A program made the position numbers and the translations under genes. From assembly GCA_016937175.1 (NCBI GenBank), contig JAFGWL010000056.1:166845-230844 (forward strand): a stretch of DNA of 64,000 nt. The letters run 5' to 3'. How positions within the stretch are numbered: the stretch's first letter is position 1; each line of letters starts with the position of its first letter. Below are positions 7,559 through 26,192 of this stretch, in pieces. Origin of the DNA: Candidatus Mcinerneyibacteriota bacterium (GTDB taxonomy: Bacteria > Macinerneyibacteriota > Macinerneyibacteria > Macinerneyibacteriales > DSCS01). The notes beneath the pieces are model-generated. The model saw only the letters and a list, made by a program, of their open reading frames with translations. It was not told the origin of the DNA and searched no databases.

Positions 7559-8803
7559 TCACTCTCTCCGGAAAAGCAGAAGAGTCATGTCGTCTGTCTG
7601 TTTTCCCCGGGCAAAATCGAAGGCCCTGTCGAAAAGATTCTGGCTGAACGCCTCAAGGCTCTCCCTCGGGCCCTTCTCCAGATCCTTCACAAAGGCCTTC
7701 TCCCCATAGAGGTTCTCTTCGCTGTCCATGGATTCAGTGATCCCGTCGGTGTAAAGGATCAGGGTCTCTTTCCGGTCGAGGGGAAGTGTATGAAGGCTGA
7801 AGTCATACTCTTCCAGGATACCCAGTGGAATGTCATTACTCTCAAGAAAACGGACAGAACCCTCCTCGGAAAGAAGAGCCGGATAATTATGGCCGGCATT
7901 GACGTATTCGATGGCATGTCTCTTTTTGTCCAGTTTACCTAAAACAAGAGTCACAAAGCGCTGAGCTTCCGTATCCCGGAAGATGGAACTGTTCAGCTGA
8001 TTCACGATATCGGCGAGATTCATTTTAAATCGGACAGCCGAATGAAGATAGGCACGCAATGTGCTCATGACCAGGGCAGCAGGGGCCCCTTTCCCGGAGA
8101 CATCTGCGATGACGAACAACACCTGGTCTTCTCCATAGGGAAGAACATCATAATAATCGCCCCCGACACTCCGGCAGGCCCGGTACCGGGCCACATACTG
8201 ATATCCCTCGATGGAGATATCATCGCGGGGAAGAAGCCTCTCCTGGATCTCTCCTGCGATCCTCAGGTCAGCTTCCATCCGTTCCTTTTCCAGAGTATCT
8301 TTATGCCACATGGCGTTTTTCAGATTTAAGGCAGCCAGATCTGCAAATGTCTGGAGGAGTTTCAAGTCCCGGGAATTAAAGGCTCCGCCGTCTTCCTTGT
8401 TCAGGACTTCTATCAGACCGATGACCTTACCGTTGATCCATACGGGAACACCGATGATGGATTTAGTAACAAATTCGCTTTTTTTGTCCACCCCCTGAAA
8501 AAACCTCGGATCGGCCGAAACATCTTTGACCAGAAGCGGCTTTTCATTCTGAATGATCCATCCGGCGATACCCTTGTCGGCGGGGAAGCGGATCTCTTTG
8601 ATCTTCTCCCCTTTTTCTCCCGTGGCCACATCAAAATAGAGCTCATTTTTTTCTGTATCCAGGAAGATCAAAGAACTGGCTTCCGCTTTAAAGACCACTT
8701 TAGCCTGTTCCATGATGACAGCTTTTGTCTTGTCAAAATCCAAAGAAGCATTGAGCATTTTGACGACATCAAGGAGTTTTCTGTACCGGCTTTGTTCCGC
8801 CAT
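7559..8803 (-). CDS. GAF-domain PP2C-type serine phosphatase (RsbU/SpoIIE-like)
   Basis: 414 aa. N-terminal GAF, then a PP2C/SpoIIE domain (GGDYYDV...ADVSGKG...YTDGITE); 1-nt gap to the downstream kinase gene. Confidence 0.85.
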   Translation of the reverse strand: MAEQSRYRKLLDVVKMLNASLDFDKTKAVIMEQAKVVFKAEASSLIFLDTEKNELYFDVATGEKGEKIKEIRFPADKGIAGWIIQNEKPLLVKDVSADPRFFQGVDKKSEFVTKSIIGVPVWINGKVIGLIEVLNKEDGGAFNSRDLKLLQTFADLAALNLKNAMWHKDTLEKERMEADLRIAGEIQERLLPRDDISIEGYQYVARYRACRSVGGDYYDVLPYGEDQVLFVIADVSGKGAPAALVMSTLRAYLHSAVRFKMNLADIVNQLNSSIFRDTEAQRFVTLVLGKLDKKRHAIEYVNAGHNYPALLSEEGSVRFLESNDIPLGILEEYDFSLHTLPLDRKETLILYTDGITESMDSEENLYGEKAFVKDLEKGPRESLEAFSQNLFDRAFDFARGKQTDDMTLLLFRRE

Positions 8804-10982
8804 CGCGTCCCTCCCTTTCCAATTGAGCTAACAGTTTAATATACCCTTTCATCTTCTCTTTGGCAACCAGAAGGGCTCTCAGGTTCTCCTCTTCCGCTTC
8901 GATGACCTGGGGGGAGGCTTTATTCAAAAATTCAAAATCAAACAGGCGGCTCCTTTTTTCGAGGATGCGTCTGTTTATCTCTTCCTTCTGCTGCTGCAAC
9001 TCCTCCATCCGCAGACTCACTCTTGATTTATCATAGACCGGGATATAGAGGCTGATCTTATCCAGCTTCATTTTCAAGCTTTTTTTGGGCATCTCCTTGG
9101 GAGTGATGTATTTGAGCTCTGTAAGACTTAAAAAACGGGTTATATAAAACATATTCCGGTTGAGGGTATCCTCCAGCCCGCCGCCGGGATTGGTTATCCA
9201 TATCTCCAGGGGTTCATCGGGCCCGATATTCAATATTGACTTTCCGTCCATGACCGTATCGATAAGATCCAGGATAAAATGGTCCCGTTCGAGTTCTTCG
9301 CTGAAGTGATAGTCCTCCCTGTAGGCCGGGATCCTTCCGGATTCCGAGATATCAGGATAAAAGGGAGCCAGACAGGTCTTAACAGCCCGGAAAACATAAA
9401 GAGAATTCCTGAAGACAGCGGGGTCCTCTTCTGCCTGAATCTTTTTGACAAAGGGATAGACACGGTGATCCAGAAGGCCCATGAGAGCTTCCAGATGCCC
9501 CAGAAAACTAAACAGGTCGCCTACTTCAAGGGATCCGGTCGCTTTCAGGATAAAATCTTCCAAGGCCGTGAGAAGCAATTTGTCGATATAAAAATCAGTC
9601 CTTATGTCCACTTCGTCCATGGCCCCTTTGATCCGTCTGGAAAAGAGCCTTTCCCACCTGTTGAGAAATGAAAGAACCTTCCTGTCGCTGAGATGGATAT
9701 CCCTGTGAAGAGCTCCATCAAGATAGGCCAGGGGAGATACTTCGGGGAAAGATTCCGGCAGGACTCCTTCTCCGGATCCCTCTCTGTATTCCAGCCCGAT
9801 GACCTTCCGGTTGTCCCCCTTTTGCCGGGGGGCGAGGATCTTTTGAAAAAAGGACAACCGGTCGGAGACGAAATCTTTTTCCTCCTCATGCAGGAGCAAA
9901 AACCTGACCGGTTGACGCCAGAGAAAGGGAAGGAGAAGATTTCGCATCCGGTCATTAAAGAGCGCCTCCTCCTTATGCGTAACTTTTGAACATGCCGGGC
10001 AGGACTTTTCATCATAAAAAAGTGTTTTACATTGCGGGCATATGCGGTATTCGATCCTGACCGGCCCCGGATGAGAGTCCGGCCAGCCTTTATGCGAAGT
10101 AAGGATCAGCGGCCCGCTTCTGGGCCGTTCAGAGGTCACTTGTTCTACTCCTTCCTCGGAGATAAAGAGATGCTCCGCCAGAAGGTTATCAGCCACTTCA
10201 TTGCAATGACGGCAGCGGGGGACTTCTATCTCCTGATCCAGAGATTGGGACAAAGCCCCGTACATACTGAGGTCTCCCAAAAGCCTCTCGGGGTCATTCC
10301 TGTAAAGGGAAAGGAGACGTGTCCGGCTTTCAGATTCTTCATCCTCTTTGTCCTCTTTCTGAAGAGTAATAAATCTTGTATAGTACTCCGGGCGTGAGAC
10401 ATCCTCTACTTTCAGGATAGGGACATGATGCCCCAGGATAGGGACGATTCCTTTTTTGTCAGCATACTTTTCCATATTCCGGACGCCGATGGCTTTGACA
10501 TTCAAAAGAGCCAGGGGATCTGTGACTGAAAAGGTCAGAGGGTCGGCAAGGGCGGTGACATTCATCCTCAATGAATAGACATGATGTCTTTCCCGGGTAA
10601 TGCGGACCTCATACCCTTCCAGGACCCTTCCGCATCCGGGGCAGAAATACCCTTTGATCAGGCCTTTACGGGGAAGCCGCCTCTTGAAGAGCTCTTTCAT
10701 GAGGCGGTTTACGAAATCATGCCGGGTCTCTTTGTCAAGGGGAAGATGAAGCTCTTCGAAGCGGATGCCGAGAAGAGTATAAAGTTTTTTTTTCAATATT
10801 TCTTTCTGATTGTTTTTGCAGAGGATAAGATCATAATAGGCCGGCTTTTCCTCCCCGAGAGAAGCAAACGCCTTGTGGAGAAAATTTCCATAGACCAGGG
10901 GATAAAGGTCACGGGCCGTGAGCCGCCTGTGGGTGACAGGCGTGTAATAGATCATGCCTTCTTTTTTGCTCTTATCAGCCAT
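8769..10982 (-). CDS. large cytoplasmic Zn-knuckle protein of unknown function; possible class I aaRS (MetRS)-like pseudo-enzyme
   Basis: 737 aa, no TM or signal peptide. Cys pairs CPGC (aa 114-117), CRHC (257-260) and CPQCKTLFYDEKSCPACS (315-331), the last resembling the MetRS Zn knuckle CPKCKSPDQYGDNCEVCG. No HIGH or KMSKS motif; C-terminal coiled-coil. Overlaps the PP2C gene by 35 nt and AMMECR1 by 8 nt. Confidence 0.55.
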   Translation of the reverse strand: MADKSKKEGMIYYTPVTHRRLTARDLYPLVYGNFLHKAFASLGEEKPAYYDLILCKNNQKEILKKKLYTLLGIRFEELHLPLDKETRHDFVNRLMKELFKRRLPRKGLIKGYFCPGCGRVLEGYEVRITRERHHVYSLRMNVTALADPLTFSVTDPLALLNVKAIGVRNMEKYADKKGIVPILGHHVPILKVEDVSRPEYYTRFITLQKEDKEDEESESRTRLLSLYRNDPERLLGDLSMYGALSQSLDQEIEVPRCRHCNEVADNLLAEHLFISEEGVEQVTSERPRSGPLILTSHKGWPDSHPGPVRIEYRICPQCKTLFYDEKSCPACSKVTHKEEALFNDRMRNLLLPFLWRQPVRFLLLHEEEKDFVSDRLSFFQKILAPRQKGDNRKVIGLEYREGSGEGVLPESFPEVSPLAYLDGALHRDIHLSDRKVLSFLNRWERLFSRRIKGAMDEVDIRTDFYIDKLLLTALEDFILKATGSLEVGDLFSFLGHLEALMGLLDHRVYPFVKKIQAEEDPAVFRNSLYVFRAVKTCLAPFYPDISESGRIPAYREDYHFSEELERDHFILDLIDTVMDGKSILNIGPDEPLEIWITNPGGGLEDTLNRNMFYITRFLSLTELKYITPKEMPKKSLKMKLDKISLYIPVYDKSRVSLRMEELQQQKEEINRRILEKRSRLFDFEFLNKASPQVIEAEEENLRALLVAKEKMKGYIKLLAQLEREGRDGGTKPVQKTP

Positions 10983-11532
10983 CCCGATCCTTTTCAGAAA
11001 AGATCTCGGCTGTAAAGGAGTAGATCTCAGTCTCGGGCCAGGAAGCAGCCTCGGGGGGGAGCCCCGCCTTCCGGCAGGTATGTCCGATAAACTCCTCCCG
11101 CCCCCAATGATACTCGACGGCTACCTGGGGCAGAAGGAGCCCTGATCTTGACCCGTTTCTGACAACGAGCCCGTCCCGTCCGGTACGTATCCCGCTCAGG
11201 TCCGTGATACGCTTCAGTGGCGACAGAAGAGAGATTTCAATGGCAACATCGTCAAGTTCCTCACGCCTGAGAGGTTCAAAACGGGGGTCGTGAAAAGCGG
11301 CTTCACGGGCTAAATGGATAACGGCGTCTTTCAACGGCTCCACTCCGGTTATAAAGCCGATGCATCCCTTTAGCTCACCGCTGAGAGTCAGAGTGACGAA
11401 AAGGCCTCTCTTTTGACTAAAAAGAGGATCTTCCAGAGGTTCGATAAAGATTCCGGGATCGAAGACAGATGCAATGCTCTGCCTTGCTCGTCTAAGAAGG
11501 GCTTGTCTCTGACCGTCCTTCAGTGTCAGCAT
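10975..11532 (-). CDS. AMMECR1-domain protein (AmmeMemoRadiSam system protein A-like)
   Basis: 185 aa with the AMMECR1 core LKGCIGF and LSPLKRI...LLLPQVA. Confidence 0.8.
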   Translation of the reverse strand: MLTLKDGQRQALLRRARQSIASVFDPGIFIEPLEDPLFSQKRGLFVTLTLSGELKGCIGFITGVEPLKDAVIHLAREAAFHDPRFEPLRREELDDVAIEISLLSPLKRITDLSGIRTGRDGLVVRNGSRSGLLLPQVAVEYHWGREEFIGHTCRKAGLPPEAASWPETEIYSFTAEIFSEKDRDG

Positions 11533-12493
11533 GCCCGGCCCCCCTCTTTGATTTCCGATGTATGAAAAAAACCACCAGGGCCCACAGGAAAAGAGCGATG
11601 ATGACGAAATTCATGATAACGCCCAGGTAGAGGTATTTCTTTTTATAGTCAAACTGCCGCTCATGTTCTTTCTTGAAGGCTTCGTCGCCGAAGCGGCACA
11701 TATATTTATGATCGGGAGCAAAGACATCAACGATGCCCTTGGCATTGTCACTCACGAAAAAATAACCGTTGTACGACGCAAGAGAGGCAGGAATATAATA
11801 TTTAGACTGAGCAGTCAAAAGAACTTCCTCAACCGGGTCATAGACATAATACCTGGCCGAGAAAAAATCCTTATCCGCGTAGAGAAAATGAAGGGCTCCC
11901 CCGTCATCTACTCCCCGGATGACGGTCCCCTCTTCAGGCAAACGGTCGAAAACTCTCTCCTCCGCCCCGCCAAGCTGACGGATGATATTACGGCCTCTCT
12001 CCGAGTAATAGATACCGCCTCTCCACTGAAAGAGGGCATAGGGCCTGACAGGTGTCTTTTGAGTCTCCAGGAGAGCCCCTTCAGAATCCAATATCTCAAT
12101 ATACTTCTCTTTAGCGGATACGCCGTAGATCTTTTTGCCGATGGCCGTGACTGTCGTGTAACGTCCGGCGGAAAAACTCTTCTGCGGGTTGAACCAGGAG
12201 TCATAGACGATAAACCGGCCATTCTCTCTGCGATAGGTCACCGGCACTCCTTCCAGAAAGAAGAAGGCATCGGGCTTGCTGCGGAATTGAAATCCCATGG
12301 ATTTCTCTCCGTTCAGTGTATACGCCTCGATGACACTTCCCTCAAGAAGATAGAGTTTATCTCCGTTGAACGCCAGGGCATCGATGCCGGGAGCTTTCAG
12401 GAAACGGTCTTTGGCGATAAAGTTGACGATAACGGCGAGGATGATAAGAGCGATGATGAGTATAGCCTGGGTGTTAAGCCTCTTCTCATTCAT
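11492..12493 (-). CDS. membrane protein, N- and C-terminal TM helices with ~270-aa Tyr/Gly-rich extracytoplasmic region
   Basis: ORF 11492-12526; likely start MNEKRL at 12493, whose ATG overlaps the TGA of the upstream small ORF (ATGA). Hydrophobic segments ILIIALIILAVIV and VIMNFVIIALFLWALVVFF. Confidence 0.55.
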   Translation of the reverse strand: MNEKRLNTQAILIIALIILAVIVNFIAKDRFLKAPGIDALAFNGDKLYLLEGSVIEAYTLNGEKSMGFQFRSKPDAFFFLEGVPVTYRRENGRFIVYDSWFNPQKSFSAGRYTTVTAIGKKIYGVSAKEKYIEILDSEGALLETQKTPVRPYALFQWRGGIYYSERGRNIIRQLGGAEERVFDRLPEEGTVIRGVDDGGALHFLYADKDFFSARYYVYDPVEEVLLTAQSKYYIPASLASYNGYFFVSDNAKGIVDVFAPDHKYMCRFGDEAFKKEHERQFDYKKKYLYLGVIMNFVIIALFLWALVVFFIHRKSKRGAGHADTEGRSETSPS

Positions 12494-12821
12494 CCCCGAC
12501 ACCGAATACTTCTTTAAGAAAATCATTCATAAGGTCTTCACTGTTATCCGAAGGAACGACCTGAGCCAATTCATCTTTTTCAGCATTTTTAATCGTGGAC
12601 ATCACCTCTTTGTGCTGTTCCACAAGCTTCTCCTCTATCTTCTTCTCGATCTTGTCCGGGTCTCCGTTAATGATCAACTTTTTTTTCTTGCTGCCGATGA
12701 TGGCCCCGTTATCGAAGATCAGGGTGACGATGGTGCTGTTGGACGGCATAAATTCCGTCTGAACATGGACCTTTCGGTTTTTAAATTCGACATCGCTGTT
12801 TCTCCCCTGAATCATGCTCAT
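12486..12821 (-). CDS. small hypothetical protein (111 aa), Lys/Glu-rich
   Basis: Complete ORF with ATGA-type coupling to rimI upstream and to the membrane protein downstream; no recognisable motif. Confidence 0.45.
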   Translation of the reverse strand: MSMIQGRNSDVEFKNRKVHVQTEFMPSNSTIVTLIFDNGAIIGSKKKKLIINGDPDKIEKKIEEKLVEQHKEVMSTIKNAEKDELAQVVPSDNSEDLMNDFLKEVFGVGDE

Positions 12822-13303
12822 TCCTCCTTGGCATGTTGGATTATATCATTTTTGCAGCCCTTTTCAAGAGTTAGTTGCATCACTAGGGCATCCTCTCCGT
12901 TATCCGTATAGTAGTTCTTGCGCAGGCCTGCGGGGACAAATCCTCTTGAGCGGTAGAGAGCCTGAGCTGCCCGGTTGCCGAGGCGGACCTCCAGCCAGAT
13001 GTTCCGTCCCCCCCGCTTTGCCATCTCTTCCAGAGCAGCATCCAGAAGTCCTCCTCCGACACCCTTTCTGCGGAAACTGGGATGAACGGCAAAATCCGCA
13101 ATATGCCCTTCATCGAACAGGACCCAGCTCAGGCAAAACCCTGCCAGGATATCCCCTTTAAACGACCCGATAAAAAAGGCGTAATCCTTTTCGAATTCAG
13201 CAGCCATCATCTCTTTGGTCCATGGGAGAGTGAAAGAGGCGGATTCGATGGCTAAGACTGCGGCCAGGTCACGTCTGTCAAGAAGACGGATTTTTCTTCT
13301 CAT
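12818..13303 (-). CDS. rimI: ribosomal-protein-alanine N-acetyltransferase RimI
   Basis: ORF 12818-13378; likely start MRRKIRLLDRRDL at 13303. GNAT motif RRKGVGGGLL; classic position after tsaB. Confidence 0.8.
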   Translation of the reverse strand: MRRKIRLLDRRDLAAVLAIESASFTLPWTKEMMAAEFEKDYAFFIGSFKGDILAGFCLSWVLFDEGHIADFAVHPSFRRKGVGGGLLDAALEEMAKRGGRNIWLEVRLGNRAAQALYRSRGFVPAGLRKNYYTDNGEDALVMQLTLEKGCKNDIIQHAKEE

Positions 13304-13979
13304 AATTGATCTCGGCATCAGAAAGCCTGCAATAATCCGGCTCCAGGGAAAGAAGATCGGACGGGCCCTCTTTTTCAAACTTCTCCAGCCCGATCCTGCC
13401 GACAGCGAAAGGATCCGTGCGCGTAAACCGACCGAGGCCTTTCACTGCACCGGGGAAAATGGAGAGAAGGGTCTCCCGGAAGGCTTCTCCCTCACCGAGA
13501 AAGGCCGGCTCCCGGGCTTTCTCCAGGACAAGCCTGAAAAAAGGCTCCGGCTCATAAGACCCTGAGGGAATGATCTCTTTAAGTTCCGCTCCGCTTTTTT
13601 CGTAGAGAGCTCCGAACACCTGGCCCTTTCTGGCGTCAAAAAGAGGGAGATAAAAACCGTCTCTGACGGCATAACTGGCGGCCAGAGCTTCAAGGGTGTT
13701 GACTCCCGTGATAGGGATTCCCAAGGCATAGGAGAGACTTTTACAAAGGGTCATCCCGATCCTGAGGCCTGTAAAAGATCCGGGTCCCCGGGCTACAGCC
13801 AGGAGCCCCACATCTTCGAGTCGGAGGCCGCTTTGGGCCAGGAGAAAATGAATCATGGGAAGAAGCTTTTCTGAATAGGTGGCTTTTACGTTAAAAGAGA
13901 TGCTCATCAGGGGGGTTCGATCGAGCAGAAGGCCTGCACTACCTAAAAAACGTGAGCTGTCGACAGCAAGAGTATACAT
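13278..13979 (-). CDS. tsaB: tRNA threonylcarbamoyladenosine biosynthesis protein TsaB (YeaZ)
   Basis: 233 aa, MYTLAVDSS...ARGPGSFTGLRIG Kae1/YeaZ fold lacking the metal site; between tsaE and rimI. Confidence 0.85.
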   Translation of the reverse strand: MYTLAVDSSRFLGSAGLLLDRTPLMSISFNVKATYSEKLLPMIHFLLAQSGLRLEDVGLLAVARGPGSFTGLRIGMTLCKSLSYALGIPITGVNTLEALAASYAVRDGFYLPLFDARKGQVFGALYEKSGAELKEIIPSGSYEPEPFFRLVLEKAREPAFLGEGEAFRETLLSIFPGAVKGLGRFTRTDPFAVGRIGLEKFEKEGPSDLLSLEPDYCRLSDAEINYEKKNPSS

Positions 13980-13982
13980 CGT

Positions 13983-14405
13983 TCACCTTTCAATCGTGAT
14001 CTCACGAGTCGTTTCATCGACCAGTTTAATAATGACCATGGCTTTATCTGTCCCCGGAGGGATCTCCGCCTTTTCGGCCCACTCGATAATGGATACAACC
14101 CCCTCTTCGAGATGCTCATCGAAACCCAGTTGAAAGAGCTCCTCAGAATCTTCGATCCGGTAGAGGTCGAAGTGGTTCACCGCTCCCCGGGAAGAGGGAT
14201 AGATGTTGAGAAGCGTAAAAGTGGGAGACCGGACTTCTTTTTCCGGGATTCCGTAAAAACGTGCCATTCCCCTGGCAAAGACGCTCTTCCCAGCTCCCAA
14301 ATCCCCATACAGGAGGACAACGGCACCCCGGGCCAGTTCACCTGCAAGCTTTTCCCCCAGGGACAGGGTATCTTCAGGAGAGCCGGATAAGAAGACTTCT
14401 TTCAT
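13983..14405 (-). CDS. tsaE: tRNA t6A ATPase TsaE (YjeE)
   Basis: 140 aa, Walker A GDLGAGKS and the YjeE signature; conserved tsaE-tsaB-rimI order. Confidence 0.85.
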   Translation of the reverse strand: MKEVFLSGSPEDTLSLGEKLAGELARGAVVLLYGDLGAGKSVFARGMARFYGIPEKEVRSPTFTLLNIYPSSRGAVNHFDLYRIEDSEELFQLGFDEHLEEGVVSIIEWAEKAEIPPGTDKAMVIIKLVDETTREITIER

Positions 14406-15841
14406 GGGATAAGATTCATTCCTTTTGATGTGACAGCCAGGACATAACCGTTATAGGCAAACAGCTTCTCTGTTCGGGAAGAGCACAGCCCGTCTTCTAC
14501 TGTCAGGACTTTAAACCGTTCAGTTTCCAGGTCGATAATATAGAGGCCTGTCTCTGTGGCGGCATAAAGCTTGCCTTCCCTTACGAGCATGTCAGAGACC
14601 CCTTCCCGCAGGGATTTGACGACCCCCGATTCGTGAGTATCGATGTCGTACCACATGATCCCCATATTCCCGCCCACATAGAGCCGGGTGCCGGCCCGGG
14701 CCATGGTATTGAGGAAATCACTGTGTAAAGAAGAGGCTGTCAGCCTTTGAAGGACCGTTCCGTCTTTTGCGGCCAGGATCAGGCGGTCTCTGTGCAGAAG
14801 GATCAGAGTCCCTTCCGTCACATCGAATTGGTCGACATTGAAAAAATCTATTCCTCGGATCTCTCTGACCTTACGGGGTTGACGGACATTGAAGGAATTG
14901 ATCCCGTATTTTGTCAGGAGATAAAGCTCTTCTCCCTCTGCCCGAAGGGAGATAATATTGTTATCCAGAAGGCCGGCATCCATCTTTACGGCTGAGCGGA
15001 AGGAAGTGCCGGCATAGACCCCGACTCCGTTGCTTCTTGTGGCCAACCAGAGACGCCCGGCAGCCCGGACAGCATCATTCAGGTTATCGTCCAGTTCAGG
15101 GACTCGGTCAAAAGAGAAAGCTCCATTTTTCAAATGGTTGATAAAAGTCCCCACAAACCAGTAACCGCCCTCTTCATCAGGCAGCACTGCTTTCAGGCCG
15201 GAGCCAAAGAGAGCTCCGTTCTCTTTTTTGACTACGGGAGAGGAGGATGAGAAGGCTGCAAGATAACCTTCTCGGGTGATGAGGACACCGTCCCCCCCCG
15301 GAAGTCCGGCATAGTCGATGACTTCCAGAGGATTTCCCGTATCGGGGTCAAGAGGCGGGAAGTCGGGTGCTTTACGATGTATGGGATGAACAGGTACCTG
15401 CAGTCCCCGGACCAGTTCGAACCGGGTCAAAAGCCATGTATAGTCACCGCCCTTCGCCCTCACAGAGATCCGCCGGTTGTCATATCCCCACTCCAGGACA
15501 GGGCCTACGGACTTCCCGATCTTCTCCCAGGAGTCATCAGCCAGGCGCCTGTAGATACCCCGGTCGGTGAAGGCCAGGACCTCACCCAGCTCTTCTGCAG
15601 CCGCTATCATATAGATATGGTGTCTTTCCAAAAGGTCTCCCGGATTCCCCGAATACTGAAAAGAACCTTCAGCTCCCCGATAGATAATAAGGCCTTTGTC
15701 GGTCCCGCAATAGACGTTAAAACTGTCAGAGGCCACATCGGTAGCCTTCTCATAAGAGATGAAAGAGAGGGCTTCCCGGGCTGCTGATGTCAGAGAAGCC
15801 GACAAGAACAGAAGGAGGAAAACCAACCATCTTCGTATCAT
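14402..15841 (-). CDS. secreted beta-propeller protein (two-component-regulator-propeller-like repeats)
   Basis: 479 aa with signal peptide MIRRWLVFLLLFLSASLTSAA; repeated blades WFVGT / LWLAT / LYAAT / LYVGG. Confidence 0.55.
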   Translation of the reverse strand: MIRRWLVFLLLFLSASLTSAAREALSFISYEKATDVASDSFNVYCGTDKGLIIYRGAEGSFQYSGNPGDLLERHHIYMIAAAEELGEVLAFTDRGIYRRLADDSWEKIGKSVGPVLEWGYDNRRISVRAKGGDYTWLLTRFELVRGLQVPVHPIHRKAPDFPPLDPDTGNPLEVIDYAGLPGGDGVLITREGYLAAFSSSSPVVKKENGALFGSGLKAVLPDEEGGYWFVGTFINHLKNGAFSFDRVPELDDNLNDAVRAAGRLWLATRSNGVGVYAGTSFRSAVKMDAGLLDNNIISLRAEGEELYLLTKYGINSFNVRQPRKVREIRGIDFFNVDQFDVTEGTLILLHRDRLILAAKDGTVLQRLTASSLHSDFLNTMARAGTRLYVGGNMGIMWYDIDTHESGVVKSLREGVSDMLVREGKLYAATETGLYIIDLETERFKVLTVEDGLCSSRTEKLFAYNGYVLAVTSKGMNLIP

Positions 15842-16404
15842 CAGAAACCTCCTGTAAAATGCTCCACACAGATTTTTAAACCGATCCCGATAAGGATCAA
15901 TCCTCCGGCGATATTGATCTTCGTCCCGAAGACCAGCCCGAAGACACGCCCGATGTAAACGGCGACCCAGCTTGTGAGGAAAGTGATTCCTCCGATTATG
16001 ACCACGGGCCAGAGAATAGAGACGTCCAGCAGAGCGAAGGTCAGCCCCAAAGCCAGGGCATCGATACTAGTGGCCACTCCCAGAGCCAGAAGGATCCCCG
16101 GTGTCAGCGAAGTCCGTTTTACGGCCTCTTCGGAAGCAAATCCTTCCCTGATCATATGCAGGCCGACTAAAAGAAGAAGGGCAAGGACGATCCAATGGTC
16201 TACAGGCTTGATCACCGGAGCCAGACTCTGCCCCGCCATCCATCCGGCTACGGGCATGGCGGCCTGAAAGAATCCGAATGTCGCAGCAATGATAAGAGGA
16301 TGCCGGAAATTGAAGAATTCCAGGCTGAAGCCATAAGCCAGGGCTACGGCAAAGGCGTCCAGGGCCAGCGAAAAAGCAATAAGGACAATATGGATGATGC
16401 TCAT
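15841..16404 (-). CDS. mntP: manganese efflux pump MntP
   Basis: 187 aa with two MntP half-domains (LALDAFAVALAYG ... ATSIDALALG). Confidence 0.85.
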   Translation of the reverse strand: MSIIHIVLIAFSLALDAFAVALAYGFSLEFFNFRHPLIIAATFGFFQAAMPVAGWMAGQSLAPVIKPVDHWIVLALLLLVGLHMIREGFASEEAVKRTSLTPGILLALGVATSIDALALGLTFALLDVSILWPVVIIGGITFLTSWVAVYIGRVFGLVFGTKINIAGGLILIGIGLKICVEHFTGGF

Positions 16405-16411
16405 AACCCTG

Positions 16412-17521
16412 CTATCCCTTTTCCCTTTGCAGATACTCGAGATATCCGAAGATAAACTGGTCGATATCGCCGTTTAGGACTGCATCGACATTCCCTGTCT
16501 CTACGCCGGTCCGGTGATCCTTGATCATCTTATAGGGATGAAGAACATAAGAGCGTATCTGGCTGCCCCAGGCATTTTCTTTTTTGGAGTTTTCTAATTT
16601 ACTCTTCTCCGCTTCCAATTTCTCCATTTCCAGCTGATAGAGCCGCGCTTTCAGCATCTTCATAGCCTGCTCTCTGTTCTGAATCTGGGAACGCTCATTT
16701 TGACACTGAACGACGATATTGGTAGGAAGGTGAGTAATACGGACCGCTGAATCGGTCATGTTGACATGCTGCCCTCCGGCTCCGGAAGCACGGAAGGTGT
16801 CGATACGCAGATCCTTTTCATTGATCTCCACCTCGATCTCTTCATCCACTTCGGGATAGACGAAGACAGAAGCAAAGGATGTGTGACGCCTCTTGTTGGA
16901 ATCAAATGGACTGATCCGGACAAGGCGATGGACACCGTTTTCAGTTTTAAGATATCCGTGTGCATAAGAGCCCTTGATATAAAGAGTCACGCTTTTGATG
17001 CCCGCTTCTTCTCCATCCTGATAGTCGATTATTTCCACACCGTATTTACGGTAATCGGCCCAATGCTGATACATCCTCATCAGCAATGAAGCCCAATCCT
17101 GGGATTCTGTCCCTCCTGCGCCGGGATGGATCTCCAGATAGGCATTGTTGGGGTCGTTTTTCCCGTTGAGCAGGCTCTGCAGCTCAGCGGCCTTCAATTC
17201 TCTTTGAAAGGTATAGATATTCTCTTCCAGCTCCCGGTTCATCCCCTCATCGGGCTCTTCTTCAAGCAAGTCGGCAAGAAGGATGATCTCTTCAAGAGCT
17301 TCTCTTATCCCAGAAAAAAGTTCCATCCTGTCTTCCAGGAGCCTCAGTTCCCGCCCCAGTTCCTTTGTCTTCTTCTGATCCGACCAGACCTCTTCCCGGG
17401 TCATCATCTCCCGGATCTCCCCGGCTCTTTTCGAGGCTGATTCAATTTTTAAGAACTCCTTCAATTTGGCCAATCTGGGAAGGGCCTCTTCTATGACACT
17501 CCTGGCTTCAAAGATCTCCAT
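16412..17521 (-). CDS. prfB: peptide chain release factor 2
   Basis: 369 aa in one continuous frame; GGQ motif (SGAGGQHVNMTDSAVRITHLPT) and RF2 SPF tripeptide (RISPFDS). Confidence 0.9.
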   Translation of the reverse strand: MEIFEARSVIEEALPRLAKLKEFLKIESASKRAGEIREMMTREEVWSDQKKTKELGRELRLLEDRMELFSGIREALEEIILLADLLEEEPDEGMNRELEENIYTFQRELKAAELQSLLNGKNDPNNAYLEIHPGAGGTESQDWASLLMRMYQHWADYRKYGVEIIDYQDGEEAGIKSVTLYIKGSYAHGYLKTENGVHRLVRISPFDSNKRRHTSFASVFVYPEVDEEIEVEINEKDLRIDTFRASGAGGQHVNMTDSAVRITHLPTNIVVQCQNERSQIQNREQAMKMLKARLYQLEMEKLEAEKSKLENSKKENAWGSQIRSYVLHPYKMIKDHRTGVETGNVDAVLNGDIDQFIFGYLEYLQREKG

Positions 17522-17524
17522 GTC

Positions 17525-18205
17525 CTACTCCTTCGCCCCTTGGCGCATCTCTTTTTGAAGATGGTTCAGCACCGTGCTGTAGTTTTTGTTTTCCGGTTCA
17601 CACTCTACCGCCATAGAGACTTCTCTGATCCCTTGCTCCCGTTCCCCCGATTGATAAAGGAGCATCCCGTAGAGATAGTGGGCCAGGGCATTTTTCTGAT
17701 TGACGCCCACCGCTTCCTTATAAGCTTTTCTGGCCTTTTCCGTCTCGCCATTGCGGGCTGCTTCAGCGCCCTTTTCAGTCAGTTCCAGGGACCTGACATA
17801 GGCCGTCCTCCATTCTTTATTGAAGACTTTGTCCCGCCTTTTCTGAATAAAATAGTTAAAGGGCTCCACTTCAAGAGCCAGGCTGACCGCCTCTTCAGCC
17901 TTTTTCCAGGCCTTCTGCCGCAAATAGACTTCTGAAAGAAGGGAAAAACTGGCGATGCTTTTGGGATTCATACGGGTAGCCTTGAGAAAATACTCTTCAG
18001 CTTTCTCCAGGTTTTTCTCTTCGAAATAGATCGTTGCAATATTATGAAAGATCATATAGTTGACCAGCCTGTTCTCTTCAAGCTGAAGGTAAAGGGCCTT
18101 TGCCCGGCTGTGATCTCCCTTACGAAGCGCTTCATTGGCTTTGCCCGTCAGGCGTCTGGCTTTGAGCAGCTTGGGATACAAAGCCAGTTTTTTTATAAAT
18201 TTCAT
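17525..18205 (-). CDS. TPR-repeat protein
   Basis: 226 aa with several 34-residue TPR units (AKALYLQLEEN..., AEEYFLKATRMNP..., AYKEAVGVNQKNALAHYLYG). Confidence 0.7.
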   Translation of the reverse strand: MKFIKKLALYPKLLKARRLTGKANEALRKGDHSRAKALYLQLEENRLVNYMIFHNIATIYFEEKNLEKAEEYFLKATRMNPKSIASFSLLSEVYLRQKAWKKAEEAVSLALEVEPFNYFIQKRRDKVFNKEWRTAYVRSLELTEKGAEAARNGETEKARKAYKEAVGVNQKNALAHYLYGMLLYQSGEREQGIREVSMAVECEPENKNYSTVLNHLQKEMRQGAKE

Positions 18206-18232
18206 GGTCCCTCCCTTATTTGGTCTAAAAGG

Positions 18233-18260
18233 ATGATACCCTTTTAAGGCTCTTTTTCAA
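18233..18260 (-). promoter_or_regulatory. sigma70-like promoter for the TPR-prfB-mntP-tsaE... operon
   Basis: Minus strand reads AAATAAC-TTGAAA-N16-TATCAT, then AGGGAGGG SD and the ATG at 18205. Confidence 0.5.
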
Positions 18261-18327
18261 GTTATTTCATCACATTGCGGCCGTAAAAGGAGCAGGAGTT
18301 GCCGTTTTTGCAACAAAGTCAGGATTC

Positions 18328-19068
18328 ATGAGTATACACAAGAGAGCGCCCATGATTGAAAAAGAAGCCTTGATCGTCTCGTCACAAAGACACCTGGCCT
18401 CACGCCTTCAGACAGAGCTGGCCCGTATCCCCGGAATATCTGTCCGCCCCCGGATCTATGAAGAGGGGCGGCTCTCCTTCAACCTCCGCCGGCGCAGCCC
18501 CGACCTTATCTTCATGTCCCTTAAAAACGAGCCTTCTCTCTGGGTCGACCTCTTCCTCCATAGGCCCCCATTTTCGCAGGTCATCGCAATCACGCCCGAC
18601 CCTGCCCTGGCTCCCCGGGCTTTCCTTTATAACTGTGCCGATGTCCTGACATCCCCCTTCCGCGTTCAGGACCTGCGCAGGGCTGTCGCCAGGGCCCTGA
18701 CACGGCGTTTTCTTTGGCTCCGAAGACAGGAGAGGCACTTCTCCCCCCTGGCAGCCCGTAAAAAAGATGTGATCCGCTTTTTCAACCCTGAAGAAATCCT
18801 CTTTTTTAAAGCAGAAGATAAAGTCGTCTTTCTGTATACAGACAAAGAGCGCTATTTCTCACGTTTCAGCCTGAGCCAGCTGGAAGCTCGCCTAAACCCC
18901 CTCCAATTCTGTCGTGTCCGGCGTAATGTGATCGTAGCGCTTCATGCGATCCGCGAAGTGGAAATCAAAGGCTCACGCGGGCTTTTCCTCTCTCTCAGAG
19001 GAAGCGGGATGAAGATCCGCGCCGGACGGAGATATATCCCTTATCTTAAAGAAAAGCTACTCCTTTAA
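18328..19068 (+). CDS. LytTR-family DNA-binding regulator with degenerate (pseudo-)receiver domain
   Basis: C-terminal LytTR domain (IRFFNPEEILFFKAEDKVVFLYTDKERYFSRFSLSQLEARL...FCRVRRNVIV). N-terminal receiver-like fold has Ser at the phospho-Asp position (PDLIFMSL) and IVSSQ in place of the acidic pair. Possible true start MIEKE at 18352. 12-nt convergent overlap with the MEMO gene. Confidence 0.7.
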   Translation: MSIHKRAPMIEKEALIVSSQRHLASRLQTELARIPGISVRPRIYEEGRLSFNLRRRSPDLIFMSLKNEPSLWVDLFLHRPPFSQVIAITPDPALAPRAFLYNCADVLTSPFRVQDLRRAVARALTRRFLWLRRQERHFSPLAARKKDVIRFFNPEEILFFKAEDKVVFLYTDKERYFSRFSLSQLEARLNPLQFCRVRRNVIVALHAIREVEIKGSRGLFLSLRGSGMKIRAGRRYIPYLKEKLLL

Positions 19069-19896
19069 TCCCCAGGATCCGTATGTCACAAAAGAGTGAA
19101 GCCCCCCTGCGGGCATTTTGTCGTAGCTGGTCGTATATTCGAGAAGCTGGATGACACCTTGCCGGAAAAGCCCGCAGATCAGGGCCACACCTCCAGGGCC
19201 GCAGGCGGACTGATGCTCCAGGGCATATGGAATGATCTCCTTCCATTCTCCCTTGCTCACCTTTTTAATGAACTCAGGGTCTTTTTGCCGGGTCACATAT
19301 TCATATCCCGCAGCTCCTGTCCCCAGGGAAGAGTCTCCGTAACGGAACCCGTAGTGAGTCAAATCGGTACTGGCCACAAAGATCACTTCCGGATGATCCT
19401 CTTTTAGTTTTTCAAGGATATTGACATAATCCGTAAGGCTTTTCTGGATCCCCGGAGGAACTGAGACGGGAATGATCCGGCTCCGGGGATAGAGGTACTT
19501 TAAAAAAGGAAGCTGGACCTCGATGGAATGTTCCCCTTCATGGGCCCGGGCTGAATGGAGAAAGAGCGATTCATCGAAATAGTCTCTGATAAGCCCATGG
19601 GCAACGGGCATATCTCCCAAAGGAGTCTCCCAGGCACCTTCCGGAAAGACAGCAGGACGCTCCACTCCGTAGGTATGGACGGCCCCCAGGAGGAGGAAGA
19701 CGGCATCGGGGCAGGCATTCAAAGCTGCCAAGGCTCTGAGAGCGATTCCTCCTGAGAAGGCCCAGCCTGCATGGGGAACGATGCCCCCCCGGTATTCCCT
19801 CAGCCCTGTCTCTGACAGCTCGCATTTGATAAAAGCTTCGATCTCAGCGGCCCGGGCAGGATAAAACTGTCCGGACACGACAGCATTTCGTCTCAT
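19057..19896 (-). CDS. MEMO1-family protein (AmmeMemoRadiSam system protein B-like)
   Basis: 279 aa with the N-terminal VSGQFYPA and metal-site PHAGWAFSG motifs of the Memo fold. Confidence 0.8.
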   Translation of the reverse strand: MRRNAVVSGQFYPARAAEIEAFIKCELSETGLREYRGGIVPHAGWAFSGGIALRALAALNACPDAVFLLLGAVHTYGVERPAVFPEGAWETPLGDMPVAHGLIRDYFDESLFLHSARAHEGEHSIEVQLPFLKYLYPRSRIIPVSVPPGIQKSLTDYVNILEKLKEDHPEVIFVASTDLTHYGFRYGDSSLGTGAAGYEYVTRQKDPEFIKKVSKGEWKEIIPYALEHQSACGPGGVALICGLFRQGVIQLLEYTTSYDKMPAGGLHSFVTYGSWGLKE

Positions 19897-19904: not shown

Positions 19905-22709
19905 CTATTCAAACAATATTTTAAGATCCTCCCACGACATCGTTTTCATGAAAGCGGTATCGGTAAAGTCGAGAGAGTGGAACATCTCGCTCTTCTCTTC
20001 CTGCATTCTGATGATCTTTTCCTCGATAGTCCCTTCGGTGATCAGCTTATAGACATTGACAGTCCGGGTCTGCCCCATTCTGTAAGCCCGGTCCGTGGCC
20101 TGTCTTTCCACCATGGGATTCCACCAGGGATCAAAGTGGACCACGACATCCGCCCCTGTGATATTCAGGCCGGTGCCTCCGGCTTTGAGACTGACCAGGA
20201 TGATGGGGGTTTCTCTGTTTTCATTGAAACGGTCGACGATCTCCACCCGGTTCGGGGTCTTTCCGTCGATATATTCAAAAGGGATCTTATCTTTTCTCAG
20301 CTCATCACGGATGATATGAAGCATTTTTACAAACTGGCTGAAGAGAAGGATCCGGTGTCCGCCGTCCATGGATTCTGCGAGGATCTCTCTGAGCAGATCC
20401 ATTTTTGCTGAGATATCTTCATTCTCAGTGAGCTCAGGATAGATCATCCCCGGATGGTTACAGATCTGGCGCAGCCTGATCAGCGCGCTGAGGATATGCA
20501 TACGGCTCTTGACAAATCCCTCTTTTTCCACAAGCCCGAAGATCTCGTTTCTGATCTCCCCGAGAAATCGCTGATAAAGGGCCTTCTGCCCGTCTGTGAG
20601 AGGGACGACAGAGACCTGTTCGATCTTGGGAGGAAGCTCTGTGAGGACCTCTTCTTTTGTCCTTCTGAGGATAAACGGCTTGATCTTCATATTCAGCTCG
20701 TTGAGGACTTCTTCATTCTTTTCTTTGACGATCTCTTTGTCGTAATAATCGACGAAATGCCTTCTTGTCCCCAGGTATCCGGGCATGATAAAGTCAAAGA
20801 TCGACCAGAGCTCGCGAATGGAATTCTCCATAGGGGTCCCTGTCAGTACCAGTTTAAACATGGCGTCGAGTTTTTTAACGCTCCTGGCTACTTTGGTCTG
20901 ATAATTCTTGATATGCTGGGCTTCATCCAGGATGACATAGTGGTAGACCCGATCCTCGTAGAGGTCGATATCGTTGCGGAGGAGGGAGTAGGAGGTGATG
21001 AGCAAGTCCGCTTTCTCCGACCCGGCGATGATCTCTTCTCTCTGAGCCCGGTTACCCTCCACCACGGCACATTTCATATGCGGTGTGAATTTCTTCACTT
21101 CCTTGACCCAGTTATGCATCAGGGATTTGGGGCATACAACCATGGAGGGCAGCGCGCTGCTGACAGAAATCATCATGGCCAGAGCCTGGACTGTCTTTCC
21201 CAATCCCATGTCATCGGCCAGCACTCCGGAGAGTTTATAGCGGTGGAGAAAATGAAGCCAATAATAACCCTCTTTCTGATAAGGCCGGAGGATCTTATCC
21301 AAGCTTTCCGGGACAGGTATCTTTCTGATTCCTTTGACATCCATGAGCTCTTCATAGAGGGCCCGGAAACGCTCGTCACCCCGGATCTCGATGTCTTTAT
21401 TCTTCTTGACGTAGTTGATCAGGTGAGGCAGGTAATAGATCTTATGCTGGAAGCTCTCTTTTTTATCCAGAGAGAGTGCAAAAGCCGCCTTAAAGTCCTC
21501 CATGAATTGACGGATCTCTTCCAGGTTCACAAGCTTCAGGATCCTTGTCTTATCCAATTTGATAAAGGGGTCCCCTTTACGGATATGATCTCTCAGCATC
21601 TCAGGGTCAAGCGAATAATCCTCTTTCAGCCCGCACCCGAAATTCAGGGTAAATGAAGAGTCCTCTTCCAGAGATATTTCCAGAACCGGTTTGATGGTCA
21701 CATTGAAAATGCGGATCTGCCGGAATTCCGGGGTCAGCCTCTTTGTCCAGTCAGAGGGGATCCTTTTAAATCCGTTGATGAGAAAGTCGATGATATCATC
21801 ATTGTCCTTGAGGACGAAAAAGCCCTCTTCCCATTTGAAGTTATATTGAAAGAAAAAAAGAAAAAGACGGCGTTCCTTCTTGGGGTCTCTGCGGATAAAA
21901 TTGATCTGGTCATCTACGGTCTTGACGATATAGGGGCCTTTTTTGACAATATCGCTGTAAGTAAAATCCATCTTCCCGTAATGATAGATGGGATCCACTT
22001 TGATGATCCCTTCGGAGTAGTCAAGCTTTAATTCTATATTGAGCTGGTTATGGTGGATCTCCAGACGTCTTATTTCCCCGTCCCATTGAAAATCGAGGTA
22101 TCTGTTCCAGTAATTGTGATAATTATCGATAAAATCAAAGAGCTCCTCCTCCCGGAACTCCTTCCCCTTAGTCAGAATCCTGTCCCAGAGAGGCTGGGAA
22201 TAGACCGGAAGAAGGCGGGCCAGCAGGGAACCGCTCAGATACCACTTCTCTCCCTCGAAGGAAAGGATGCGCGAACTGGCTTCAGGCCCTGGGTTGACCG
22301 ATATGCTCTCCTGACTGCATCGGATGAGGACAGCCGGTTTTTCGAACTTTTCGCGGACATCCAGCCGTACCCCTGAAGAGAGCAGATAAAGCTGCTCATA
22401 CCCGATCAGAAGGCTCAGGAGATCTCTGGCATAGGGGCCATGAAGGACAAAAGCCTTGTTGACAAATTTCCCGAATTTCAGGAGATGCTCCAGAATCATC
22501 TCCTGATGCTCCGTCAAAGTCCCGAGGATGTCGAATATCTCCTCTTCCCGGAAAAAATCCCGGGTTGCATTCTCGGGATGGCTGATAAACTCCATCATCT
22601 CGTTCTGCAGCCCTGGCCAGTCCGTCTCCCGGCCCGGTTTCAGCGTAATGAATATATCGCTGATCGTATCTTCTATACCGATGTAAAAGGGCAGGGGCCT
22701 TTCAGTCAT
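19905..22709 (-). CDS. SNF2-family helicase with ~480-aa N-terminal domain of unknown function
   Basis: 934 aa. SNF2_N motifs LADDMGLGKT and ILDEAQHIKN, then helicase C (LKAGGTGLNITGADVVVHFDPWWNP). The N-terminal half has no recognisable motif. Confidence 0.85.
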   Translation of the reverse strand: MTERPLPFYIGIEDTISDIFITLKPGRETDWPGLQNEMMEFISHPENATRDFFREEEIFDILGTLTEHQEMILEHLLKFGKFVNKAFVLHGPYARDLLSLLIGYEQLYLLSSGVRLDVREKFEKPAVLIRCSQESISVNPGPEASSRILSFEGEKWYLSGSLLARLLPVYSQPLWDRILTKGKEFREEELFDFIDNYHNYWNRYLDFQWDGEIRRLEIHHNQLNIELKLDYSEGIIKVDPIYHYGKMDFTYSDIVKKGPYIVKTVDDQINFIRRDPKKERRLFLFFFQYNFKWEEGFFVLKDNDDIIDFLINGFKRIPSDWTKRLTPEFRQIRIFNVTIKPVLEISLEEDSSFTLNFGCGLKEDYSLDPEMLRDHIRKGDPFIKLDKTRILKLVNLEEIRQFMEDFKAAFALSLDKKESFQHKIYYLPHLINYVKKNKDIEIRGDERFRALYEELMDVKGIRKIPVPESLDKILRPYQKEGYYWLHFLHRYKLSGVLADDMGLGKTVQALAMMISVSSALPSMVVCPKSLMHNWVKEVKKFTPHMKCAVVEGNRAQREEIIAGSEKADLLITSYSLLRNDIDLYEDRVYHYVILDEAQHIKNYQTKVARSVKKLDAMFKLVLTGTPMENSIRELWSIFDFIMPGYLGTRRHFVDYYDKEIVKEKNEEVLNELNMKIKPFILRRTKEEVLTELPPKIEQVSVVPLTDGQKALYQRFLGEIRNEIFGLVEKEGFVKSRMHILSALIRLRQICNHPGMIYPELTENEDISAKMDLLREILAESMDGGHRILLFSQFVKMLHIIRDELRKDKIPFEYIDGKTPNRVEIVDRFNENRETPIILVSLKAGGTGLNITGADVVVHFDPWWNPMVERQATDRAYRMGQTRTVNVYKLITEGTIEEKIIRMQEEKSEMFHSLDFTDTAFMKTMSWEDLKILFE

Positions 22710-22769
22710 ATCTCCATCTCTTCATCGTTTATCTTTTACTGTACCCCCATAAAATAAAACGGGCAAGCC

Positions 22770-25700: not shown

Positions 25701-26192
25701 GTTGAGATTGATGATTTCCTTCATTGCCTTAAAATAGGCCTCATGTTCACCGGCTTGCCGGTAGAGAGATGCCGCCAGAAACAGGGTCTCGGTGTAGAGG
25801 GAGGTATCTTTATAAAAGCGCCTGATCTTTTCTGCCGTCTCAAGAGCCTGTTTTTTCATTCCGCTTTCATCCAGGGCCAAAGCGATGTAATAGAGGATAT
25901 CGCCTAAAGCCGGGCTCTCCTCATAACGCTGAAGGAACCTGTTCCCTTCCGTGAGGACCATATTCCACTTCTCCAGACGGGCATACGAGGCGATCAGCTT
26001 CCGGTAAGCGCCTTCGACCCGCCGGTCCTGGGGGTTCTCATTGATAAATGTCTTATACTCTTCCACGGCCAGGTCAAAAAAACCATCCTGAAAGAGTTTT
26101 TCGGCATAGTCGAATCCTCCGATGATCCCCGAGACAGAAACAGGGGAGAGGATCAACACCACGATGACCGCGATTTTATGAAGAAACTTCAT
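22770..26192 (-). CDS. giant TPR-repeat protein, secreted/periplasmic
   Basis: 1140 aa with N-terminal signal peptide (MKFLHKIAVIVVLILSPVSVSG) and TPR-like units along the whole length; 17-nt overlap with the upstream 4Fe-4S gene. Confidence 0.7.
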   Translation of the reverse strand: MKFLHKIAVIVVLILSPVSVSGIIGGFDYAEKLFQDGFFDLAVEEYKTFINENPQDRRVEGAYRKLIASYARLEKWNMVLTEGNRFLQRYEESPALGDILYYIALALDESGMKKQALETAEKIRRFYKDTSLYTETLFLAASLYRQAGEHEAYFKAMKEIINLNPRGDNLKKAYISLLDYHFERGEMEKARPFLEKLEEKDLDPGKWAWYRAEIAFGQYDYDKALREYQGLMSRYPESEYYYRALYGKGRVYMEKRAFSEAAAAFQSLLDKNPNSAMADDALKGKAEALLLLGKKEEAAKEVDYFLKAYPDSSLYPDIVRLALDIEREKRGWDTEKIAALFDQMAGFHRNRQDEAEIKRALMEKAEFFEDGGFHAQAVNALLDYITYFSRDPQVPYLVYRVGRIYAYEMKDYERAIAAFERIAFNTEGYGDKALYEIGLCYEKIPRYDRAVTAYKNIGERFPFSPLADKARKRIDYLNRYIITDITRGLAALDGLLEQQLKEPVGEKELYRQRGDVFFSVKDFSKAYEYYQKGGRDDEKALRAGAYALLLKKGPKSEIESFFNARKDHPAAGEVYSHVLVYYDMEGTLEEDDFLYAFSNFPGSVSQDTVRSYIDFLISEEREEAFKELPLPESVAGTPAEEYARAMTAYYNSNYGEAERLFTGLLETEGEKRGTLSYYLASIYHRTGRNGEARELLLSITKPFEMKVKASLLLADIAFGEADYEEVIFNIYNVLTRLPEYYNDPEVMGLYLDALILDGQKEAARKACLNITAEEGGLAVVKGLACLKLGMDEEAMGLLGKARGRDVRGRVYKALAEQERWRDILEFFREGDAYSVSRRVIALTRLNRLDEGLALRRKNSKTLREFEEEISYVLGEVAYLGKKDAGRAEDYFIQAGGGKEVLETPWNLQAAFMLGNIRLGKGETDKALDIFLRLEANPSFEGKEKLYLSLGQAHYALGDKDKALDYFQRSYEFKPSPDALYNRGLLFKEEGETGKAREAFQQVVDRFPETPLYYGALLNIVYTFMDERKYDEALGRLTSFIDRAPDSLKMEIQFNIGDCYYARGHYRDAIREFMKVKYLPVNTDEDFQWMVTALFQGGTAYEALGEMDKAVEIYEYIIQISGKETVYSKTAASRIREIRQH

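Follow-up and report, generated by a model that had tools for sequence, protein, structure and literature searches.

Do AMMECR1 and MEMO genes that lie in different operons, with no radical-SAM gene alongside, still encode a functional pair? The question is raised by a 64-kb stretch of DNA (the window) from a Candidatus Mcinerneyibacteriota bacterium, in which homologues of proteins A (AMMECR1) and B (MEMO) of the AmmeMemoRadiSam system (TIGR04335/TIGR04336/TIGR04337) are encoded 7.5 kb apart. A literature search found no biochemical function for bacterial AMMECR1 or for the three-gene system. Burroughs and colleagues reportedly predicted a nucleotide base or an isoprenoid as the substrate. 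The TIGR04335 and TIGR04336 models were presumably built on genomes with all three genes.

Protein A (10975..11532, minus strand; 185 aa) matched TIGR04335 in profile searches with 172.3 bits (cutoff 99, E = 6e-51) over profile positions 2–175 of 175, and PF01871 with 178 bits over positions 2–168 of 168, the full-length domain. It also resembles the archaeal AMMECR1 proteins (PH0010, 1VAJ; MM0484, 1ZQ7; ST0229, 1WSC). A exceeds the cutoff of their model, TIGR00296 (158.6 versus 91.05), and its alignment with PH0010 runs over the full length (E = 6e-40), but the bacterial system model gives it a higher score. A protein 100% identical to A is already named 'AmmeMemoRadiSam system protein A [Candidatus Mcinerneyibacteriota bacterium]' by NCBI, and the identical protein is found on two Logan contigs, both inside the window span. 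An alignment of 111 sequences has 32 columns with a conservation of 90% or more; A keeps 30 of them, including the invariant G56-C57-I58-G59 (GCIG cysteine motif) and L132–V137 (LLLPQV segment). The exceptions are R55K and W163A. The former gives LKGCIG in place of LRGCIG, at a column where R is 98% conserved, and is restricted to the window species and its closest relative.

Protein B (19057..19896, minus strand; 279 aa) matched TIGR04336 with 191.8 bits (cutoff 26, E = 1.3e-56) over profile positions 1–267 of 270, and the LigB-like domain PF01875 with 148 bits. It fell below the equivalog cutoff of the archaeal MEMO model PRK00782 (151 versus 295), which sets it apart from archaeal MEMO. Human MEMO1 (3BCZ) is a distant relative (E = 6e-13 over residues 3–189), and in the alignment H42, H74, D178 and H181 of B fall on the PHAG, SH and DxxH metal-site positions of MEMO1. 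Among B homologues, H42, H74, E122, H123 and C232-G233 are conserved; the alignment did not place C232 against the MEMO1 cysteine. The B proteins of this clade are highly divergent, scoring at most 80 bits against B at other loci, whereas the shorter A reaches 195 bits. Each gene is present once in the window. On the strength of the curated-model scores, Pfam matches, PDB relatives and retained conserved residues, we identify the two proteins as AmmeMemoRadiSam system proteins A and B. The initial annotation, which had placed AMMECR1 and MEMO at these positions, was thus right about both genes, with matches to curated models far beyond chance.

The two genes belong to separate transcription units. 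A comes tenth in a co-directional array of tightly packed genes, TPR226-prfB-mntP-479aa-tsaE-tsaB-rimI-111aa-344aa-A-737aa-SpoIIE/GAF-HATPase-STAS-AMP-binding-mfd. Its first block (14402..18205, minus strand, like all genes of the array named here; assigned by Pfam) comprises a TPR protein (17525–18205), prfB (16412–17521), mntP (15841–16404) and a 479-aa beta-propeller-like protein (14402–15841), separated by gaps of at most 7 nt or overlapping. Then come tsaE (13983–14405; PF02367), tsaB (13278–13979; PF00814) and rimI (12818–13378; Acetyltransf_1), their domains assigned on an identical Logan contig, followed by a 111-aa RomY_Nterm-like gene (12486–12821; NF053858, 57.7 bits versus a cutoff of 50). 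Directly upstream of A is a 344-aa ORF (11492..12526), called as 333 aa, that encodes a predicted membrane protein. Profile searches with it gave no family match; its position is conserved in all relatives. The start of A overlaps this gene by 41 nt, and the stop of A overlaps the gene for a 737-aa protein by 8 nt. B is the last gene of a unit (upstream block 19905..28346, minus strand) made up of folP (27150–28346; PF00809), a Fer4_5/NapH-like gene (26176–27018; PF12801), a gene for a 1140-aa TPR protein (22770–26192), a SNF2 helicase gene (19905–22709; PF00176, PF00271 and PF08455) and B itself, whose start follows the SNF2 stop by 8 nt. Between the two units, on the opposite strand, lies a gene for a LytTR-domain regulator (18328..19068, plus strand; PF04397, 73.7 bits). 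The 3' end of B overlaps this convergent gene by 12 nt, and the overlap is conserved in relatives. In sequence scans, promoter-like sites occurred at chance level and terminator-like sites marginally above it, so we set the operon limits by the spacing and strand of the genes. These limits agree with the earlier placement of A in a tsaEB-rimI array and of B at the end of a folP-NapH-TPR-SNF2 unit. One promoter-like site lies before the A array (18260–18233, minus strand); the overall count of such sites was not above that in shuffles.

No radical-SAM gene accompanies either protein in the window, as had been claimed. None of the plausible genes in the 64 kb matched PF04055, and the CxxxCxxC motif occurred in a single 88-aa junk ORF. 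A profile made from ten verified TIGR04337 proteins, run with filters off against the six-frame translation of the 64 kb, found nothing (best E = 1.3). The same holds around A and B in related genomes: on the contigs of four clade lineages, all of which have the split arrangement, the 10 kb to either side of A and of B contain no TIGR04337-like gene, and none of the four has a radical-SAM gene beside either one. Nor is there one beside P0006 and P0007, two of the closest non-clade A homologues.

How unusual is this arrangement? Scans with A retrieved only non-clade loci from metagenomes (best identity 51%), and 58 loci, again all non-clade, from species genomes (best identity 48%). The survey drew on 57 unrelated loci, each flanked by 3 kb or more of sequence, 25 from metagenomes and 32 from species genomes (GTDB). 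MEMO was adjacent to or fused with AMMECR1 in 88% of these; A–B fusions accounted for 20 of the 57, and one locus (L085) had a triple R-B-A fusion. A full A-B-radical-SAM cassette was present at 6 of the 25 metagenome loci (24%) and 18 of the 32 species-genome loci (56%). Six loci were inspected individually, and in none was the radical-SAM enzyme adjacent. Likewise, at the seven GTDB loci ranked closest to the window A (43–48% identity), none lay within 10 kb. AMMECR1 stood alone at ∼10% of loci, and A–B separation recurs in about 10–20% of unrelated loci. The stable core is thus the A–B pair or fusion; the radical-SAM gene often lies apart from it. The initial annotation had taken a compact three-gene cassette as the norm. 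For A and B this holds, but with an adjacent radical-SAM gene at only 24–56% of loci it does not extend to the third member. The implied oddity of the locus was likewise overstated with respect to the radical-SAM gene; the separation of A from B is the less common feature, though not a unique one. Since the system is often scattered in other bacteria, we regard the split arrangement as ordinary. By the same token, absence of the radical-SAM gene from the window tells little about the genome, and we estimate that a TIGR04337 gene is quite likely to be present elsewhere in it. The earlier alternative, that the system works without the enzyme or that the partner is distal, is logically safe.

We also looked for recurrent neighbours of A and B across ∼140 loci, and found only sporadic, unconvincing matches. 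A SNF2 neighbour occurs in L124 and a Fer4_5 neighbour in L010 and L137. At L016, an unrelated locus with A alone, A has tsaE and a release-factor gene in its vicinity, and at the Dechloromonas locus L136, which has a full A-B-R cassette, no more than 8 kb separates A from tsaB, rimI and mfd.

Within the clade, the arrangement is conserved. The initial annotation had asked whether related genomes keep the split; they do, in four lineages and down to 62% AMMECR1 identity. The order SNF2-B-(LytTR)-TPR-prfB-...-tsaEB-rimI-...-A-737aa-SpoIIE is identical, gene for gene, across the contigs of the four, whose A proteins are 100, 71–74 and 62% identical to that of the window. A and B are thus fixed in two neighbouring, separate housekeeping arrays, A among translation and stress-signalling genes and B behind a SNF2 helicase. 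Where dS was unsaturated, dN/dS was ∼0.13–0.15 for A and B (0.114/0.751 for A of L003 versus L007; 0.150/1.19 for B of the window versus L003), indicative of purifying selection, and on this ground we judge both proteins to be functional.

On every related contig, A is followed directly by the gene for the Cys-rich, clade-restricted 737-aa protein (8769..10982, minus strand). It forms only 4 clusters among 5.8 billion proteins, and has no Pfam match and no sequence relative in the PDB. Only its last ∼155 aa show some similarity, to the C-terminal part of ValRS (NF004349, E = 6e-14, a score far short of the cutoff). An AlphaFold model built on a 4-sequence alignment was uninformative (pLDDT 39). 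Outside the clade, no detectable relative adjoins A. A 645-aa protein without a Pfam match, encoded downstream of A in L155, was considered as a counterpart and proved not to be homologous.

Together, these data favor a reading to which we give a probability of about 0.7: A and B are single-copy functional orthologues, encoded in separate arrays and working in trans, with a distal radical-SAM partner. Both would be expressed constitutively and probably act jointly, like the conserved pair elsewhere (the 'Memo-AMMECR1 system' of Burroughs et al. 2019, as cited in PMC7159879). Such cooperation is suggested by the co-occurrence and fusion of A and B in other organisms. B would contribute a predicted His/His/Asp/His(/Cys) metal centre on a LigB/extradiol-dioxygenase-like fold, and A would contribute the conserved GCIG cysteine pocket. 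As for the third component, the genome most likely encodes this PflA/NrdG-like radical-SAM enzyme (TIGR04337) at another site; in favor of this are the many other loci at which the enzyme is non-adjacent, and the scores of A and B above the cutoffs of models presumably built on genomes with all three genes. By model scores and conserved residues the locus matches the AmmeMemoRadiSam system, differing in that A and B are unlinked, in two transcription units, with no TIGR04337 gene in 64 kb. Against this reading we counted the divergence of B, the K of A in place of a 98%-conserved R, and the radical-SAM gene unseen in the window.

Could the radical-SAM component instead have been lost, or never have been present, in the clade? 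A and B would then be a two-component system as in eukaryotes, where the MEMO1 and AMMECR1 genes are unlinked and where no cognate radical-SAM enzyme is known. The unlinked genes and the alignment of the metal-site positions fit this comparison, but B is distant from human MEMO1 and a bacterial lineage may still have the partner. The lack of any TIGR04337-like gene or remnant in the window, and of any such gene near A or B in the four lineages, speaks for loss or original absence, as do the unusual divergence of B from the B of other lineages and the uncoupling of A from B, which fits a loosened system. Yet the absence spans ∼64 kb, whereas the whole genome probably measures megabases, and the enzyme is commonly non-adjacent in other lineages. 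The clade is described as anaerobic, moreover, which gives no evident reason for discarding an oxygen-sensitive enzyme, and A and B keep the family residues and exceed the system-model cutoffs. We consider this explanation unlikely.

Another view is that A and B are stray paralogues, with a complete cassette elsewhere, or that they are independent of each other, A perhaps serving its translation- or tRNA-related neighbours (tsaE, tsaB, rimI, prfB and the 737-aa protein). The overlaps of 41 and 8 nt, by which A is translationally coupled to its neighbours, would suit independence, and so would the translation genes near A in L016 and L136. But such neighbours recur only two or three times in ∼140 loci, which is compatible with chance, and outside the clade the 737-aa protein is not detectable beside A. 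Single copies in the window, purifying selection and clade-wide synteny are all as expected for primary copies; the best 120 A homologues include only one Mcinerneyibacteriota-named A, although 120 entries are too few for a paralogue to be excluded. This view appears very unlikely.

As a variant in the gene order of a system that has been annotated before, the split pair carries little weight alone. It does hold a lesson for annotation, namely that adjacency should not be expected for AmmeMemoRadiSam genes. More speculatively, and in our estimate improbably, the whole clade may lack the radical-SAM enzyme, making it a bacterial equivalent of the eukaryotic MEMO/AMMECR1 state, and AMMECR1 may act with its coupled neighbours, including the 737-aa protein. 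If AMMECR1 did act with that protein, its ValRS-like tRNA-binding tail would hint at an RNA-directed role. Human MEMO1 and AMMECR1 are both disease-linked and biochemically unexplained. A clade without the radical-SAM enzyme would offer a bacterial model for MEMO/AMMECR1 function that is independent of radical SAM, as it is in humans.

The window carries one AMMECR1-family gene (A, 10975–11532, minus strand, 185 aa) and one MEMO-family gene (B, 19057–19896, minus strand, 279 aa), each intact and in single copy, where the initial annotation had placed them. Protein A scored 172.3 bits against NCBIfam model TIGR04335, 'AmmeMemoRadiSam system protein A' (cutoff 99, E = 6e-51), and 178 bits against Pfam AMMECR1. 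It also aligned over its whole length with PH0010, an archaeal AMMECR1 structure (1VAJ; E = 6e-40), and the identical NCBI protein is named 'AmmeMemoRadiSam system protein A [Candidatus Mcinerneyibacteriota bacterium]'. All columns conserved in at least 90% of the homologues collected here are kept in A, except R55K and W163A. The former turns the family motif LRGCIG into LKGCIG. Arginine occupies residue 55 in 98% of 111 AMMECR1 sequences; lysine is confined to the window species and the relative with 78% identity, with R in the other members of the clade, the Mcinerneyibacteriota lineages that share the window's gene order.

Protein B scored 191.8 bits against NCBIfam TIGR04336, 'system protein B' (cutoff 26, E = 1.3e-56), and 148 bits against Pfam Memo. 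Human MEMO1 (3BCZ) could be aligned to it (E = 6e-13), with H42, H74, D178 and H181 of B falling at the PHAG, SH and DxxH positions of MEMO1. Comparison with the homologues collected here showed that H42, H74, E122, H123 and C232 are retained. In phmmer comparisons with proteins of ∼140 other loci, the MEMO of the clade was far more divergent than its AMMECR1, the best scores being 80 bits for B (279 aa) versus 195 bits for A (185 aa).

A and B lie 7.5 kb apart on the same strand in two units, as initially described, with a plus-strand LytTR regulator gene (18328–19068) between them. B is the terminal gene of a co-directional minus-strand unit that begins with folP (27150–28346) and continues with genes for a Fer4_5/NapH-like protein (26176–27018), an 1140-aa TPR protein and an SNF2 helicase (19905–22709), the stop codon of which lies 8 nt from the B start. 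The 3' end of B overlaps the convergent LytTR gene by 12 nt. The folP product has 398 aa; its pterin-binding domain covers only residues 136–377, and the N-terminal ∼135 aa form an extension that matches no Pfam family.

A belongs, as noted initially, to the array containing tsaE, tsaB and rimI, a minus-strand run of ∼17 co-directional genes (1907–18205) that overlap or are separated by at most 23 nt. The order is TPR226, prfB, mntP, a 479-aa propeller-like protein, tsaE, tsaB, rimI, a 111-aa RomY_Nterm-like protein, a 344-aa membrane protein, A, a 737-aa Cys-rich protein, a SpoIIE/GAF phosphatase, HATPase, STAS, an AMP-binding enzyme and mfd. A shares 41 nt with the gene upstream of it and 8 nt with the one downstream. 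Promoter and terminator scans of the window added nothing reliable on the unit limits. The run mixes translation genes (prfB, tsaE, tsaB, rimI) with mntP, a SpoIIE/HATPase/STAS partner-switching module and mfd, and its gene order is kept down to 57–62% protein identity. Its prfB (16412–17521, minus strand; 369 aa, release factor 2 type with PCRF and RF-1 domains) is a single uninterrupted ORF, and nothing in it points to the programmed +1 frameshift that many bacteria use. The 737-aa protein (8769–10982, minus strand; JXR74_07945), translationally coupled to AMMECR1, is an orphan of the clade: a search of 5.8 billion proteins gave just 4 clusters, and neither Pfam nor the PDB yielded a match. 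Resemblance to a valyl-tRNA synthetase C-terminus (E = 6e-14) is confined to the final ∼155 aa, and AlphaFold with 4 sequences gave a pLDDT of 39.

Close relatives of A number only a handful (78, 74, 71 and 62% identity), the next homologues being ∼53–55% identical. Comparison with related genomes, a check the initial annotation had proposed, showed the split to be conserved: the order from SNF2–B through mfd is exactly alike on the relatives' contigs, including the most distant (L153). Synonymous sites are saturated between clade lineages; where dS was measurable, dN/dS was ∼0.15 for A and ∼0.13 for B, indicative of purifying selection. From the shared order and these ratios, the split arrangement is old and fixed, and both of its genes are functional.

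Three independent checks concur with the initial annotation that the window has no radical-SAM gene. The CxxxCxxC motif occurs solely in one 88-aa junk ORF, and no plausible gene of the 64 kb matched PF04055, either in Pfam scans or in the annotation of the identical contig. For the third check, a profile of the radical-SAM partner (TIGR04337) was seeded with ten radical-SAM genes adjoining A/B genes in metagenome loci; three of these proteins, compared with NCBIfam, were TIGR04337 (363–390 bits, cutoff 220), and their secondary NCBIfam matches were PflA/NrdG-like. The profile, run without any filters on all six reading frames of the window, gave a best E-value of 1.3; the window thus lacks a decayed remnant as well as a gene.

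How common is such an arrangement? We compared three samples of unrelated loci. Six A homologues inspected individually comprised three with A alone, two B–A pairs and one A/B fusion, none with a radical SAM within 5–10 kb. A search of metagenomes with an A alignment yielded 80 loci; in the 25 of them flanked by 3 kb or more on either side, B was adjacent or fused in 22, a radical SAM was present in 6, and A was alone in 3. GTDB species genomes supplied the third sample, of 58 loci. In the 32 with a flank of 3 kb or more, B was found in 28, radical SAM in 18 and A alone in 3; with at least 9 kb, 3/16 had neither partner within reach. In the seven GTDB loci ranked nearest to the window's A (43–48% identity), B was always adjacent and no radical SAM lay within 10 kb. 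The full three-gene cassette is the prevailing form in Betaproteobacteria, Lentisphaerota and Kiritimatiellia. The system's stable core is thus A with B, paired or fused, and the gene for the radical SAM often lies elsewhere. What is less usual in the window is that A and B are apart, though about one locus in ten shows this too. The initial annotation was right about the split and the missing neighbour but over-weighted their oddity, radical SAM being adjacent in only those 6/25 and 18/32 loci. In two unrelated A-alone loci, L016 (1494–7776) and L155 (195–8022), A is ∼48–51% identical to that of the window and is directly preceded by an MraY-like GT4 gene. A release-factor gene and tsaE are also present in L016, and a SpoIIE gene in L155. 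This faint echo of the window could reflect old synteny or chance.

Since A and B are near-universally adjacent elsewhere, often fused and occasionally fused with a radical SAM, the two proteins probably act jointly in trans. The metal centre would come from B, on its LigB-like fold, the conserved cysteine pocket from A, and the radical chemistry from a PflA/NrdG-like radical-SAM enzyme. One 835-aa ORF (L085, 4021–6525, plus strand) fuses radical-SAM, MEMO and AMMECR1 domains, direct support for joint action of the three components in some lineages. Several TIGR04337 enzymes adjoining A/B genes carry an N-terminal leader, odd for a SAM-dependent iron–sulfur enzyme. Of the 37 examined, 6 have a twin-arginine-like leader (SRRxFLK-type) and about 3 others a hydrophobic one that resembles a signal or anchor; the proteobacterial and Lentisphaerota copies have none.

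We put the probability that the genome encodes a TIGR04337 enzyme distally at roughly 70–75%, on three grounds: in other lineages the enzyme gene commonly lies apart from A and B, the two proteins exceed the cutoffs of models presumably defined on genomes with all three genes, and the clade is described as anaerobic. As to substrate, a prediction by Burroughs and colleagues, to our knowledge the sole one published, reportedly connects Memo systems with the modification of nucleotide bases and isoprenoids. That work (Burroughs et al. 2019) is cited in PMC7159879. No report of a biochemical function of the system was found in the literature searched. The translation-flavoured surroundings of A (tsaE, tsaB, rimI, prfB and the protein with the ValRS-like tail) are suggestive of RNA, but such neighbours recur elsewhere too rarely to count as evidence. 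The system is already annotated, and its order here is a minority one, present in other lineages too; the finding would gain weight only if the clade truly lacked the radical-SAM enzyme genome-wide.
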